64,000 nucleotides of DNA from an uncultured Acidimicrobiia bacterium (lineage in GTDB: Bacteria > Acidobacteriota > Terriglobia > Versatilivoradales > Versatilivoraceae): positions 1,312,001-1,376,000 of the forward strand of contig CAWBAT010000005.1 in the NCBI GenBank assembly GCA_963786955.1, given 5' to 3'. This document shows, one piece after another, positions 12,292 through 16,276 of this stretch. Below the pieces are notes generated by a model. That model was not told the origin of the DNA. It ran no database searches and worked only from the letters and a program-made list of their open reading frames with translations. The stretch's first letter is position 1. Every line of letters begins with the position of its first letter. Made by a program: the position numbers and the translations under genes.

Positions 12292-12413
12292 GGTAGGGCG
12301 CGCTCGCCGAGCGCCCGGCAGTCTCAGCGAGACCGACCTACCAACCCCCCTTAAGTCCCCCCTTGGCGAAGGGGGACACTTTCCACGGTGGTTTCAGCGA
12401 GATCGCTTCACCT
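12292..12413. repeat. REP doublet, hairpin and REP composite
   Basis: GGTAGGGCGCGCTCGCCGAGCGC; GTCTCAGCGAGACCGACCTACC; CCCCTTAAGTCCCCCCTTGGCGAAGGGGGAC. Confidence 0.8.
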
Positions 12414-15239
12414 GTGCTTCTTTGAGCTAGCCTCAATTACTTTGACGACTGCATCGGAAAAATGCCGACGAAATTCTCGAATGGCGTTGTTTTTTCGAGA
12501 TGGATAGATTCGATTCGTGAGGAGAACCATGAAAAGTTCCCGAGAAGGGTCAATCCAAATCGAAGTCCCCGTGAACCCCGTGTGGCCGAATGCATTTGAA
12601 GAAAGTAGGTTCCCTGCAGAGCTCCCTTCCGAAGGGGTATCCCATCCCAGAGCGCGACTGCTGTTGGCCGGTTCCCTCTGCCGAGCCGTGAATTTCTCGA
12701 GCGTGCTTTGGAAAACCACCCGATGGTGATCGTAAACTCCCCCGTTCAGTATCATCTGGCAAAAAATGGCCAGGTCTCCGGAGGTTCCGAACAATCCGGC
12801 ATGGCCAGCAACTCCTTCCATAGCAAAAGTGTTCTCGTCGTGAACTTCACCTTGAAGCAAACGTTTTCTCCACGGGTCGAGCTCAGTGGGCGCTATTTTG
12901 GATTTCAAGTTAGCGGGAGGGTTAAACAGAGTATGGCACATTCCTAGCGGCTGAAAGATTCGCTCGAAGGAAAGGGTGTCCAGCGTCATCCCGGTTAATT
13001 TTTCGATGATATCACCCAGCAGGATTATTCCGAGATCACTGTATACTGCTTTGCAGCCTATCTTAAACTCTAAAGGGAGATTGAGAATCTTTTTAACCAT
13101 TTCCTGTTTTCCGCAAACGCGGCGATATAAAGGCCGGTGTGCAGGCAATCCCGACGTGTGCGTCAGCAGGTGAAACAAAGTAACCTTTTCTCTTCCACCT
13201 CCTGTGAATGATGGGTAAAAGCGGATGAGCGGATCGTCCAACTTCAATTGTCCTTGTTCGAAGAGTTGCATTGCGAGAGTCGTTGTAGAAACGACTTTTG
13301 TCAGCGAAGCCAGATCATAGAGGGTGCCCGCTGTCACAGCAGGGCTTTTCGCGGAGTAGGAAAACTTGCCATAGCCGTGGTGAAAAACGAGGCTGTTGCG
13401 GTATCCAATAGCCACCGAGCCCCCCGGAAAGGATCTTTTTTCGATTTCCTGTTGGAAAAGATTACCCAGTGTCTCCTGAAGGGCTGAGCGCCATGCTAAT
13501 AACTCTTTCGAAGTACCTTGACTCTTTGCTGATGATAAACCTGTCAAACGCATTTCGATCCTGTTGCGAAGGATTCCTGTGCCTAGTTCCGCGATCTTGG
13601 GGATCGAAATTGGCAGCCTTCCACCCGTGTCAATCTCACCCAAAAGGGCTTTGACCGCCGAACGCTGGGAGACATCTGCGTTGCTGAATGTGCACAGGTA
13701 TAAAGGAATTTGGGGGAATCCCTCAATAATGTAAGGGTTTCCAAATGCAATGGTGGCGACGGGTTGATTCAGTGACGAAAGTCTTTGAATCCAATTCGCC
13801 AGATTCTCTGGCAGTCCGACCGTGCCGGTCGCCGTGACCACCCTCGCAAACGCGGCACAAATGATGAAGTCTGCTTGAGCGGCAGATTGGTAAGCTGCCT
13901 CCATTTCAGACCGTGTTGATGATGAGGAAATTCGTGAAAAGGAAATTCGCTCGAGCCGACTTTTCAATTCTGTTTCGAAAACACCGGTCTCCTCTTGTGC
14001 TCCTCTCCCCAAGACAAGACTGACATGCACCAACCGTAGACGGCGAACGTCCACCGGAACAATCTTGCATTGGTCGCGGACCAGCGTCACGGAGGCATCC
14101 GAAAACTCTTGCACTTTTTCCTGCAATCTCGGGTTATTGATCACCCGGCTGACCTGTCGCAAGGTGAAGCGAGGTCTTTTGGTCAACCCTAACCAGGCTT
14201 TGGCGTTCAAGATTTTGTTGACAGAATGGTCAATTCGATACGGATCAATTTCCTTCCTGCGCACCGCACTGAGCAGCGCTTCGTAGACAACGCCTGGAGT
14301 CGGGGGGTCAAGCAAAACATCTACCCCGGCATTTACAGCTCGAACCGCTGCATCTCCCACCCAATAGTTTTCGGCAAGTCCAGACATGGTCAAGGAGTCC
14401 GTCACGATAATATTTGAAAAGCCCAATTCCTTTTGGAGGATATCCGTCAGTACTCGTTTTGAAAGCGTTGCAGGAAGTCCCGGAGTTGGCTCTATGGATG
14501 GGACACTGACATGCGCCGACATGACTGACCAAACACCAGCCCGTATTGCTTCCCTGAATGGAGTCCACTCGACCGATTCAAGTCTTTTTCGCCCGGCATG
14601 AATGACAGGCAGTGACAAATGGGAATCAACACTGGTATCACCATGCCCGGGAAAATGCTTGGCGGTTGCCAGGATGCCGGTTTCCTGTACCCCTCGAATG
14701 AATGCGACGCCCAAACGGGCCACTAATTCAGGATTGCCACCGTAAGATCGAATGTTGATCACCGGGTTGGCGGGGTTGTTGTTGACGTCCAGCACCGGTG
14801 CAAAAATCCAATTCACCCCTAGGGCCCGAGCTTCTTGCCCGGTGAATTTGCCCTGAAGATAGGTCCACTCTTCCGAACCGGTTGCCCCAATGGCCATGTT
14901 CCAGGGAAGTGAAAGGGTATTGCGGATTCGGAAACTGGCTCCCCTTTCAAAATCAGAGGAAATAAAGAGAGGTATTCCAGCAACTGTCTGGAGCCGGTCG
15001 ATCAATACAGCGGATTCATAAACGTCACCGGCATACAAAATGAATCCACCGACATGGTAATGCGTGATTTGACGTTTGAGTTCAAGGAACTCTGGACTTG
15101 ACGAACTCAGGTAGATCCCTCGGAAGGCTGGCATGATCATCTGCCCGACCTTCTCTTCAAGCGATAGCTTTCGAAAAGTCTTTTTGACCCAAGCCAAGTC
15201 TAGGGACTTCCTGGAGTTAATTTTCTTGTTAGGAACCAT
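12408..15239 (-). CDS. GH3 beta-N-acetylglucosaminidase fused to a beta-lactamase-fold serine hydrolase
   Basis: KHFPGHGDTSVDSH (NagZ signature), SDFERG; C-terminal ASLTK (SxxK), YSD, GHTGFTGT. Confidence 0.9.
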   Translation of the reverse strand: MVPNKKINSRKSLDLAWVKKTFRKLSLEEKVGQMIMPAFRGIYLSSSSPEFLELKRQITHYHVGGFILYAGDVYESAVLIDRLQTVAGIPLFISSDFERGASFRIRNTLSLPWNMAIGATGSEEWTYLQGKFTGQEARALGVNWIFAPVLDVNNNPANPVINIRSYGGNPELVARLGVAFIRGVQETGILATAKHFPGHGDTSVDSHLSLPVIHAGRKRLESVEWTPFREAIRAGVWSVMSAHVSVPSIEPTPGLPATLSKRVLTDILQKELGFSNIIVTDSLTMSGLAENYWVGDAAVRAVNAGVDVLLDPPTPGVVYEALLSAVRRKEIDPYRIDHSVNKILNAKAWLGLTKRPRFTLRQVSRVINNPRLQEKVQEFSDASVTLVRDQCKIVPVDVRRLRLVHVSLVLGRGAQEETGVFETELKSRLERISFSRISSSSTRSEMEAAYQSAAQADFIICAAFARVVTATGTVGLPENLANWIQRLSSLNQPVATIAFGNPYIIEGFPQIPLYLCTFSNADVSQRSAVKALLGEIDTGGRLPISIPKIAELGTGILRNRIEMRLTGLSSAKSQGTSKELLAWRSALQETLGNLFQQEIEKRSFPGGSVAIGYRNSLVFHHGYGKFSYSAKSPAVTAGTLYDLASLTKVVSTTTLAMQLFEQGQLKLDDPLIRFYPSFTGGGREKVTLFHLLTHTSGLPAHRPLYRRVCGKQEMVKKILNLPLEFKIGCKAVYSDLGIILLGDIIEKLTGMTLDTLSFERIFQPLGMCHTLFNPPANLKSKIAPTELDPWRKRLLQGEVHDENTFAMEGVAGHAGLFGTSGDLAIFCQMILNGGVYDHHRVVFQSTLEKFTARQREPANSSRALGWDTPSEGSSAGNLLSSNAFGHTGFTGTSIWIDPSRELFMVLLTNRIYPSRKNNAIREFRRHFSDAVVKVIEASSKKHR

Positions 15240-15301: not shown

Positions 15302-16276
15302 TTATCGAAATCGAGGTAAATGGACCACATCTTCAGTTGGGACCAACTCGAGTGGTTTTCCAGAGCGCTGCCAAGCCGTGAATCCCCCTTCGATGGCATA
15401 GGCATTGTATCCATTCTCCCGGAGAATATACGCCACACGGGCGCTGGTTGCTTCGCGCAGTCAGGTGCAATACAAGTAGATTTCTTTATCTTTCGACAGC
15501 TGGTGCATTTCATGCGGGAGACTGTTTGGCTCAAGGCGAATCGAACCGGGGATCCTCATGGCTCCAACATCATAGTACCCGTGGCTTCGCGTATCCGCGA
15601 CAATGACTTTTTCCTTGCTCTCTTGCGAGTTCAACTTCTCTGCCAATTCCTTTACTTGAATTCTAGGTACGTCTCTAAATCGTCGACTTTTCCTGTAGTT
15701 GCGGAGTCGTTGGATGAGATAGAGCGTCAGGCAAAACAACAGTATCCATTCGACTACCTGCGTGTACGACGTAAAGCCAAGAAGGATTTCAGTCAGTAAA
15801 TGGCTGAAGAAGAATCCGAGGCCGAAGAAAGGGAGAACATAGAGGCAAGATGCCAGGATGTCCCAGCCAAGGAACTCCAGCACCCTCATGTTCATACTTC
15901 CCGCCATCGGAGGAGCCATGGTATTCACTGCCGGGATAAACTTGGAAAACAACAAGGTCAACCGGCCATGTTTGTAGAAAGACTCGGCAGATCTTAAGAT
16001 ACAATCTTCGGGGTTGTCAAAAAAGCGACAAAGAAAACCCAGGATAGCCCAGCCTGTATAGCGGCCTGCCAGAAAAAGAAGGAAATCTCCCAATAACATG
16101 GACACGATAGCGAGTGGAATTACCTTGGAAAATGCGAGTGTTCCAAATGCACAAGCCGCTCCACCGGCCACGAGTATCGGCACAGCAGGCAATGGGAGTC
16201 CAATGGCTTCAAGAAATACGTTGAAGAATATGATCCAGTATCCGTAGTGCTTGAGGAGATTGCCGACCTCTAGCAT
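15302..16276 (-). CDS. DedA/VTT-rhodanese fusion, probable selenoprotein (in-frame UGA at 15461-15463)
   Basis: DedA motifs (GLPLPA, GDFLLF..GRY.G, SKFIPAV); ORF stops mid-rhodanese at YLYCT-UGA and the same frame continues LREATSARVAYILRENGYNAYAIEGGFTAWQRSGKPLE..TAA at 15302. Confidence 0.8.
15424..15460 (-). promoter_or_regulatory. Putative bacterial SECIS element
   Basis: Hairpin GCGCC-CGUGU-GGCGU (15444-15430), apical loop 21 nt after the UGA and containing GU; possible lower GAA/UUC stem. Confidence 0.55.

Follow-up and report, generated by a model that had tools for sequence, protein, structure and literature searches.

The gene considered here lies in a 64,000-nucleotide stretch of DNA, hereafter the window, which comes from an uncultured bacterium placed by GTDB in the Acidobacteriota (Terriglobia; Versatilivoradales; Versatilivoraceae) and corresponds to positions 1,312,001 to 1,376,000 of contig CAWBAT010000005.1 in assembly GCA_963786955.1. 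On the minus strand of the window an ATG at 16276..16274 opens a reading frame of 271 amino acids (aa; 16276..15461) whose product ends in KDKEIYLYCT, immediately ahead of a TGA at 15463..15461. The same frame continues beyond this TGA for 52 sense codons (LREATSARVAYILRENGYNAYAIEGGFTAWQRSGKPLELVPTEDVVHLPRFR; 15305..15460) as far as a TAA at 15304..15302, and the read-through product would total 324 aa. A first-pass annotation of this DNA had remarked that the open reading frame (ORF) halts at YLYCT-TGA within a rhodanese domain and resumes for 52 codons, and inspection of the sequence confirms both points. Here, we compare this locus with its relatives and argue that the apparent mid-gene stop most likely encodes selenocysteine (Sec), the whole of 15302..16276 being very probably a genuine selenoprotein gene of 324 sense codons, one of them UGA(Sec).

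The read-through protein joins two domains, and all the features given here lie on the minus strand. The N-terminal one, residues 29-154 (15815..16192), is a DedA/VTT membrane domain (PF09335) that scores 41.8 bits against a cut-off of 33.9 (44.9 bits in the genome search); within it lies a pair of cysteines, Cys83-x8-Cys92 (16001..16030). The C-terminal one, residues 212-304 (15365..15643), is a rhodanese domain (PF00581) that scores 42.7 bits against a cut-off of 22.2, extends over profile positions 2-101 of 102 and has Cys/Sec at the head of its active-site loop. This second match spans the TGA, and reading through that codon therefore restores a full rhodanese domain, the 52 further codons supplying its ATSARVA helix, its GG..AW motif and its VP..D.V.LP tail. 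Homologues of the 324-aa protein cover residues 1-324. The TGA itself (15461..15463, residue 272) follows the TGC codon of Cys270 (15467..15469) and an intervening Thr; Cys270 is the invariant cysteine of what would be a C-T-U motif.

In addition to PF00581, the rhodanese assignment draws on NCBIfam and on known structures. The best NCBIfam match is the model NF041203 (rhodanese_LYCAU, "rhodanese-related (seleno)protein"; E = 5.5e-24, model positions 15-124 of 126), although its score is below that model's cut-off. Five alignments to PDB rhodaneses differ as to which residue falls on the loop Cys: the three that are free of gaps (6mxv domain 1, 3foj and 3iwh) place U272 there, with S278-A279 on the conserved S-A, whereas the two gapped ones (6mxv domain 2 and 3nta) place C270 there, matching the IYLYC strand. 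We take the loop Cys of these PDB chains to be the catalytic one. Under either alignment, the Sec would belong to the catalytic loop of the rhodanese, with one residue between it and the invariant Cys270.

Conservation of the TGA, the hairpin and the codons beyond

The best 120 database homologues include proteins of 271-272 aa (57-94% identity), which end right after YLYCT, and proteins of 323-324 aa (50-56% identity over the full length), which read YLYCTC-x-x-[ED]-A-T-S-A and carry the remainder of the rhodanese domain; the same YLYCTC pattern appears in our alignment of 90 sequences. Because the full-length homologues read YLYCTC, the TGA occupies the second Cys column of an invariant C-T-C motif, and the Cys-type motif cited in the first-pass annotation proves correct. 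In a sample of 41 related genomes a homologue (E <= 1e-40) was found in 14. Thirteen of these, whose identities range between 94% and 29%, have TGA at the same column, and the remaining one, genome G032, has TGC in its place. One genome, G001, carries a distant Cys paralogue in addition to the TGA form. A second sample consisted of the 80 best loci from species-representative genomes, nearly all labelled Terriglobia or Acidobacteriota, and here TGA stands at the column in 75 loci, the other five having TGC or TGT. The TGA is thus shared with relatives rather than peculiar to one assembly, and the column alternates solely between TGA and Cys codons (the latter in these five loci and in L034 and L039), never TGG. 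A genome-wide reassignment of TGA was considered and rejected, since TGA is the ordinary stop of 9 of the 30 long open frames in the window. Judged from these alignments, neither does chance explain an in-frame TGA that recurs at one column in 75 of 80 loci and is followed by a segment under purifying selection.

Downstream of the TGA, the transcript would form a hairpin, GCGCC-CGUGU-GGCGU (15444..15430, minus strand; 3' arm GGCG(U/C) in the family), in which a 5-bp stem, GCGCC/GGCGU, encloses the loop CGUGU (15439..15435). The loop begins 21 nucleotides past the UGA, exactly as the first-pass annotation had described it. In a 2026 selenoproteome review (PMC13188914), the bacterial Sec insertion sequence (bSECIS) is modelled with a loop of 3-9 nucleotides, a stem of 4-16 bp, a G within the first two loop positions, a spacing of 16-37 nucleotides and a minimum free energy of -7.5 kcal/mol or below. 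Compared by these quoted figures, the loop (5 nucleotides), stem (5 bp) and spacing (21 nucleotides) of the hairpin are within the limits; the second loop position is an invariant G, followed by U or G. When 79 distinct 72-nucleotide sequences of the TGA (Sec) form, with a mean column identity of 85%, were folded jointly by RNAalifold, this 5-bp helix was the sole consensus structure. The consensus hairpin has an energy of -8.8, which is beyond the -7.5 limit, and most relatives close it with a G-C rather than a G-U pair.

The coding sequence also bears the mark of this hairpin. In the Sec forms, the third positions of the stem codons AGC, GCC, GUG and GCG have an entropy of 0-0.10 bit, as against 0.6-1.8 bit at all the other third positions; in seven Cys forms (a set from which a spurious antisense regular-expression match in L118 had been dropped) the same four positions have 1.4-1.8 bit. 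Since synonymous sites are frozen in the Sec forms and free in the Cys forms, the hairpin appears to be constrained at the RNA level, and in the TGA forms only. One compensatory change, from G-C to A-U, occurs in two related sequences whose protein reads STRLV instead of SARVA and whose stem is retained. Decoding of the UGA by SelB at this conserved hairpin seems well supported.

The codons that follow the TGA have been maintained as well. Their number is exactly 52 in 64 of 86 relatives, and the relatives' post-TGA peptides keep the ATSARVA helix and the GG..AW motif throughout. Over the first 50 of these codons the ratio of nonsynonymous to synonymous substitution (dN/dS) is 0.11 with respect to the congener L024 (dS 1.08) and 0.17-0.34 with respect to ten more distant relatives, for which dS is close to saturation. 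Four further comparisons (L032, L033, L035 and L036), made ungapped despite indels, gave ratios of 0.5-0.9 that are not meaningful, and dS was saturated for L069 and L076. By these ratios the post-TGA segment is under purifying selection, and the neutral decay that the first-pass annotation had raised as a counter-indication is not what is seen.

These observations bear directly on an alternative view, namely that translation does end at the TGA and yields a 271-aa DedA protein in which the truncated rhodanese stub has no function, the 52 codons being what is left of a fusion that is decaying into a pseudogene. Such a view would agree with the public gene calls, which end at 271 aa, with the normal use of TGA as a stop in the source organism, with the unremarkable thermodynamics of the hairpin and with an orthologue from the same genus, in genome G002, that looks broken elsewhere. 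But a decaying remnant would hardly remain open, at 52 codons in so many relatives and with dN/dS of 0.11-0.34, in lineages down to 29% identity, nor would its stop codon be expected to fall precisely on a Cys column, nor the synonymous sites of the hairpin to be frozen in the TGA forms only. We consider a real stop extremely improbable. The G002 orthologue (L030 and L038; G002:C9:82190-83057) is split between two pieces that overlap and are in different frames, and a TAG occurs close to residue 36; its TGA and hairpin are still there. Either decay of this copy or a fault in the assembly would account for the breaks.

The source genome (93% complete, 9 contigs) contains the machinery needed for Sec decoding, all four of the genes for which the first-pass annotation had proposed a search being present. 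The products of selD, selA and selB score 382, 540 and 364 bits, respectively, all over the curated cut-offs, and tRNA-Sec (selC) is detected both by Rfam (68.7 bits) and by ARAGORN (SeC, anticodon tca). There is, moreover, a second TGA gene: an FdhA-like molybdopterin enzyme (L132; G000:C5:622222-622785, minus strand) with TGA at the classical SCNRT-U-HAPS site and, 18 nucleotides past the UGA, a 7-bp hairpin with a GGUCU loop. The presence of the sel machinery and of an FdhA-type Sec site indicates that Sec decoding is in use in this organism. Among the related genomes selA was found in 40 of the 41; the exception is G032, listed as 100% complete, which carries the Cys form alone, a single case that would be consistent with expectation.

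The UGA could conceivably be read through by some means other than Sec insertion, such as near-cognate insertion of Trp or Cys or another type of programmed read-through stimulated by the hairpin. The shortness of the hairpin would suit this explanation, as would the fact that the case for selenium is drawn from sequence. It would leave unaccounted for, however, the complete Sec machinery, the possession of only a TGC form by the sole relative in which selA was not detected, the exclusion of TGG from a column that holds either TGA or Cys codons, the agreement of the hairpin's geometry and loop G with the bSECIS model and the occurrence of a similar hairpin at a classical FdhA Sec site in the same genome. 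Read-through of this kind therefore appears very unlikely to us.

The explanation that we prefer overall, with a probability of a little under nine in ten, is a 324-residue inner-membrane DedA-rhodanese selenoprotein with a Cys270-Thr-Sec272 loop, whose Sec would be inserted by means of SelB and the hairpin. As to its essentials, a DedA-rhodanese membrane protein of 324 aa with a C-T-U motif, the first-pass annotation is borne out by the conservation, the hairpin and the machinery. SelB carrying Sec-tRNA(Sec) would bind the short hairpin (a 5-bp G/C stem with a CGUGU loop) inside the coding sequence, Sec would be inserted at the UGA and translation would proceed to the TAA 52 codons later.

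Several considerations weigh against this interpretation. The related genomes are kin, and the counts obtained from them are not independent. As a 19-nucleotide fold the hairpin of the window has an energy of -7.2 kcal/mol (z = -1.94), just short of the -7.5 limit because its closing pair is G-U, and longer contexts are no more stable than shuffled sequences (z = 0.20 at 44 nucleotides and 0.64 at 71). On the basis of these three z-scores the stability of the hairpin was rejected as evidence, its significance residing in its conservation. A longer SECIS helix was rejected likewise, because, of the 79 sequences, 41 lack the extension pair 24-42 and 53 lack the pair 25-41; the 5-bp core alone is supported. 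Conservation of the stem is itself partly confounded with that of the peptide S-A-R-V-A, the synonymous contrast with the Cys forms involves seven sequences only and the support from covariation is thin, since it amounts to one event, seen in a pair of related sequences. The score of the NF041203 match, 84.2 bits (79.8 in the genome search), falls below the cut-off of 115, and the position of the Sec with respect to the canonical catalytic Cys is ambiguous (three PDB alignments against two). Finally, incorporation of selenium, function, substrate and topology are all deduced from sequence.

The rhodanese half and its known relatives

Selenoproteins of the rhodanese type have been described before. 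PMC13188914 distinguishes five forms of rhodanese selenoprotein, of which form 3 is the CxU type of NF041203; its text, as far as it was available, does not mention DedA, VTT, SNARE or PF09335. The protein described here resembles form 3 in its rhodanese fold, in the Cys-x-Sec of its active-site segment (LYCTU here, LYCAU there) and in the combination of a UGA with a downstream hairpin; the motif LYCAU is taken from the name of the NF041203 model and CxU from the table of the review (PMC13188914). The two differ in that form 3 is a stand-alone protein (the model has 126 positions), whereas here the corresponding region, residues 198-310, constitutes the C-terminus of a 324-aa polytopic DedA protein.

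Fusions of a DedA and a rhodanese domain are also known, in a Cys version. PA1209 of Pseudomonas aeruginosa (PF09335 + PF00581), for example, shares the two-domain architecture and has Cys instead of Sec; the likeness noted here is one of architecture. This architecture is noted in PMC10127716 and PMC12893004, and the former, a review of the DedA family, calls the connection of the rhodanese domain to undecaprenyl phosphate (UndP) "unclear" and, in the part available, assigns no function to the fusions. A third known system is a rhodanese selenoprotein with a DsbD-like membrane partner. It too is membrane-linked, and it gives a weak match to the rhodanese part of the present protein (25.6 bits against a cut-off of 805); its motif is UxxxxU with two Sec rather than C-T-U, and its partner is DsbD-like instead of DedA.

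In short, the gene represents the known CxU rhodanese selenoproteins in a form fused to DedA, one that is widespread in Terriglobia and annotated as truncated. A literature search found no description of a DedA/VTT selenoprotein, although supplementary tables and some surveys of 2025 lay outside that search and a prior listing is possible. The Sec form is the majority form among the Terriglobia sampled, and an orthologue 77% identical to the window's protein is named by NCBI "VTT domain-containing protein", with a length of 271 aa. Because gene callers stop at 271 aa and 75 of 80 loci have the TGA, the mis-annotation appears to be systematic and to affect an entire family of a phylum that is abundant in soil. 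The first-pass annotation had spoken of a hidden selenoprotein, an expression that is apt for the public annotations ending at 271 aa but less so for the rhodanese CxU selenoproteins, which had already been catalogued. Acceptance of this family would add a polytopic membrane protein to the selenoproteome and raise the known use of selenium by the Acidobacteriota. Over the TGA and hairpin region there is also a plus-strand ORF of 159 aa (15320-15799), antisense to the selenoprotein gene. This is most likely a spurious shadow ORF, which, with the real gene truncated, could nevertheless lead gene callers astray.

The DedA half and the neighbouring genes

The DedA family includes UndP flippases, and the first-pass annotation had alluded to them; its DedA domain was confirmed, and the link to flipping that it implied has been weakened. 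Like the canonical flippases (UptA, YghB/YqjA), the protein scores above the PF09335 cut-off and retains a first acidic residue, E23. It differs from them in its low scores with the NCBIfam UptA models (37.4 bits against a cut-off of 250 for NF052604 and 34.6 against 300 for NF052605), in the apparent lack of counterparts to the second acidic and the second basic signature residue and in its additional CX8C motif and Sec-rhodanese domain. According to PMC10127716, flipping of UndP requires two acidic (Glu39 and Asp51 of YghB) and two basic residues (Arg130 and Arg136) at the tips of the re-entrant loops. We compared these positions in a MAFFT alignment made up of the protein and six DedA paralogues of the same genome; re-entrant loops align poorly. 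Where the paralogues have R-x5-R, the protein has K112-x5-N118 (15923-15943, minus strand) and its subfamily K-x5-N/S/G, and V32 stands where the paralogue L127 has its second acidic residue; the R-x5-R basic pair of the paralogues is said to bind the phosphate of UndP. A loss of the second acidic and second basic type of flipping residue is thus suggested, though not firmly established, by this alignment.

All 90 DedA-rhodanese proteins of the alignment share the pair Cys83-x8-Cys92 (LCR....PE.C) without variation, and the genome's six other DedA paralogues lack it; this pair could interact with the C-x-U site as a redox partner. Past the last hydrophobic stretch lies a strongly basic segment (RLRNYRKSRRFRDVPR), which by the positive-inside rule would place the rhodanese domain in the cytoplasm. 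In order from the N-terminus, the protein would consist of a transporter domain of the DedA/VTT type, a juxtamembrane linker that carries positive charge, and the rhodanese domain with Cys270-Thr-Sec272. The Sec, which would either coincide with the canonical nucleophile or follow it by two residues, would make the nucleophilic attack in a sulfur/selenium-transfer or thiol-redox reaction at the cytoplasmic face of the membrane; Cys270 could close a selenenylsulfide with Sec272, and the DedA domain, with its own cysteine pair, would deliver or remove the substrate. Work by Ledgham et al. in 2005 reportedly connected DedA with selenite resistance.

A more ambitious proposal, which we make only tentatively and hold to be rather doubtful, is that a selenoprotein is encountered here for the first time in the DedA/VTT superfamily and that the dithiol Cys83-x8-Cys92 is chemically coupled to the cytoplasmic Cys-x-Sec rhodanese, the transported species being captured or reduced on the selenol on its emergence. 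That species might be, for example, a chalcogen oxyanion (selenite, thiosulfate) or a lipid-linked substrate. If true, the proposal would furnish a function for DedA-rhodanese fusions and a redox-coupled mode of action for DedA proteins. As regards DedA biology in general, the Sec of the catalytic loop, the invariant CX8C and the apparent loss of the Arg/Asp signature would point to membrane redox or chalcogen chemistry and away from simple UndP flipping.

Downstream of the gene, on the same strand and after a gap of 62 bp, begins (ATG at 15239) a 943-aa fusion of a GH3 (NagZ-like) domain with a beta-lactamase/transpeptidase fold (12408-15239, minus strand). The length of the gap is as the first-pass annotation had given it. 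Beyond this fusion are two SIS-domain proteins (one of them MurQ-like), an amidohydrolase and a MurA-type enzyme; upstream are a CBS protein and an HpcH-type aldolase. The downstream cluster looks like one for amino-sugar or murein recycling, and its earlier designation as a peptidoglycan-recycling group was a reasonable one in view of this content. The suggestion that the gene may head that group as an operon has not fared so well. A tblastn search for six window neighbours in 96 related loci showed the GH3/beta-lactamase gene adjoining the family member in no more than 3, each of them from one of two congener genomes; the CBS and HpcH neighbours are confined to the congeners' loci, and L059 has one weak, differently placed GH3 match. 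Since the adjacency occurs within the genus only, and other neighbours are found elsewhere, the operon link was rejected as a feature of the family.

The commonest same-strand neighbours in the family are a polyprenyl synthetase (48 of 80 loci), a CYTH protein (47), DUF520 (46) and TatD (42). In 42-48 of the 80 loci L040-L119 the order is TatD, DUF520 and polyprenyl synthetase upstream, then the DedA-rhodanese gene, then CYTH, with a GAF/HD-domain protein after it in 18 loci. The genus of the window has lost this arrangement. Because the genomes are related, these conserved neighbours may represent inherited synteny.

Both the DedA residues and the neighbours have a bearing on a further explanation, in which the protein belongs to the UptA/COG0586 type of UndP flippases, its gene stands first in an operon with the downstream peptidoglycan-recycling genes and the Sec-rhodanese regulates recycling of the lipid carrier. 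The 62-bp same-strand gap, for whose minus strand a consensus scan gave no terminator-like site, is compatible with such an operon, as is the resemblance of the downstream genes to amino-sugar or murein recycling; the polyprenyl synthetase upstream in 48 of 80 related loci and the assignment of rhodanese fusions to COG0586 in the DedA review (PMC10127716) also count in favour of this explanation. These points are offset by the restriction of the GH3 adjacency to one genus, by UptA scores of only 34.6-37.4 bits against cut-offs of 250-300, by the replacement of R-x5-R with K112...N118 and of the second acidic residue with V32 in the paralogue alignment and by the "unclear" connection of rhodanese to UndP in the same review; the polyprenyl synthetase, moreover, is a neighbour in related genomes and may reflect their shared ancestry. 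A flippase heading this operon is, in our opinion, unlikely.

Sequences close to the gene were found in four sequencing runs (three metatranscriptomes and one DNA library), with contigs 95-99% alike over 15562-15712, 15748-16011, 15766-15953 and 15976-16172. This coverage excludes 15306-15560, where the TGA and the hairpin are located, and the presence of a sequence in an RNA library is not proof of its transcription.

Sec and Cys forms in the family

The history of the Sec/Cys column was followed on a quick maximum-likelihood tree of 90 sequences (83 Sec and 7 Cys forms) in which the Sec/Cys site was masked; L037, L038 and L040-L042, which are duplicates or halves of loci already present, and the spurious antisense match in L118 were left out. 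The Cys forms are nested inside Sec clades, and the tree requires at least four changes between Sec and Cys. There are two clades, a main one that includes the window's protein and a deep one about 30% identical to it; Sec forms occur in both, and the nucleotides of the hairpin are nearly the same in the two. With Cys forms nested within Sec clades at four or more places, the family offers a compact system for the study of Sec/Cys exchange. At least one Cys form (TGC; L104:3805-3876) has an intact hairpin, GCGCC-AAGGU-GGCGC, which is consistent with a recent Sec/Cys change.

The deep, paralogous clade (about 30-36% identity) has the motif LYC[ST][UC]PNEA[TS]SA...RPLxGG and contains Sec as well as Cys forms, its members including L039 (G001:C22) and L034 (G032:C65). 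Genome G001 thus possesses a Sec form of the main clade and a Cys form of the deep clade. L107, from a genome whose label, Candidatus Baltobacteraceae, is that of a different phylum, has a TGA form that the tree places within a clade of Acidobacteriota sequences; horizontal transfer or a mis-binned contig could be the reason. Genome G003 has two TGA copies about 10 kb apart (L029 and L037; G003:C34, ~206-217 kb) that are mostly identical and differ at their N-termini, in what looks like a recent duplication.

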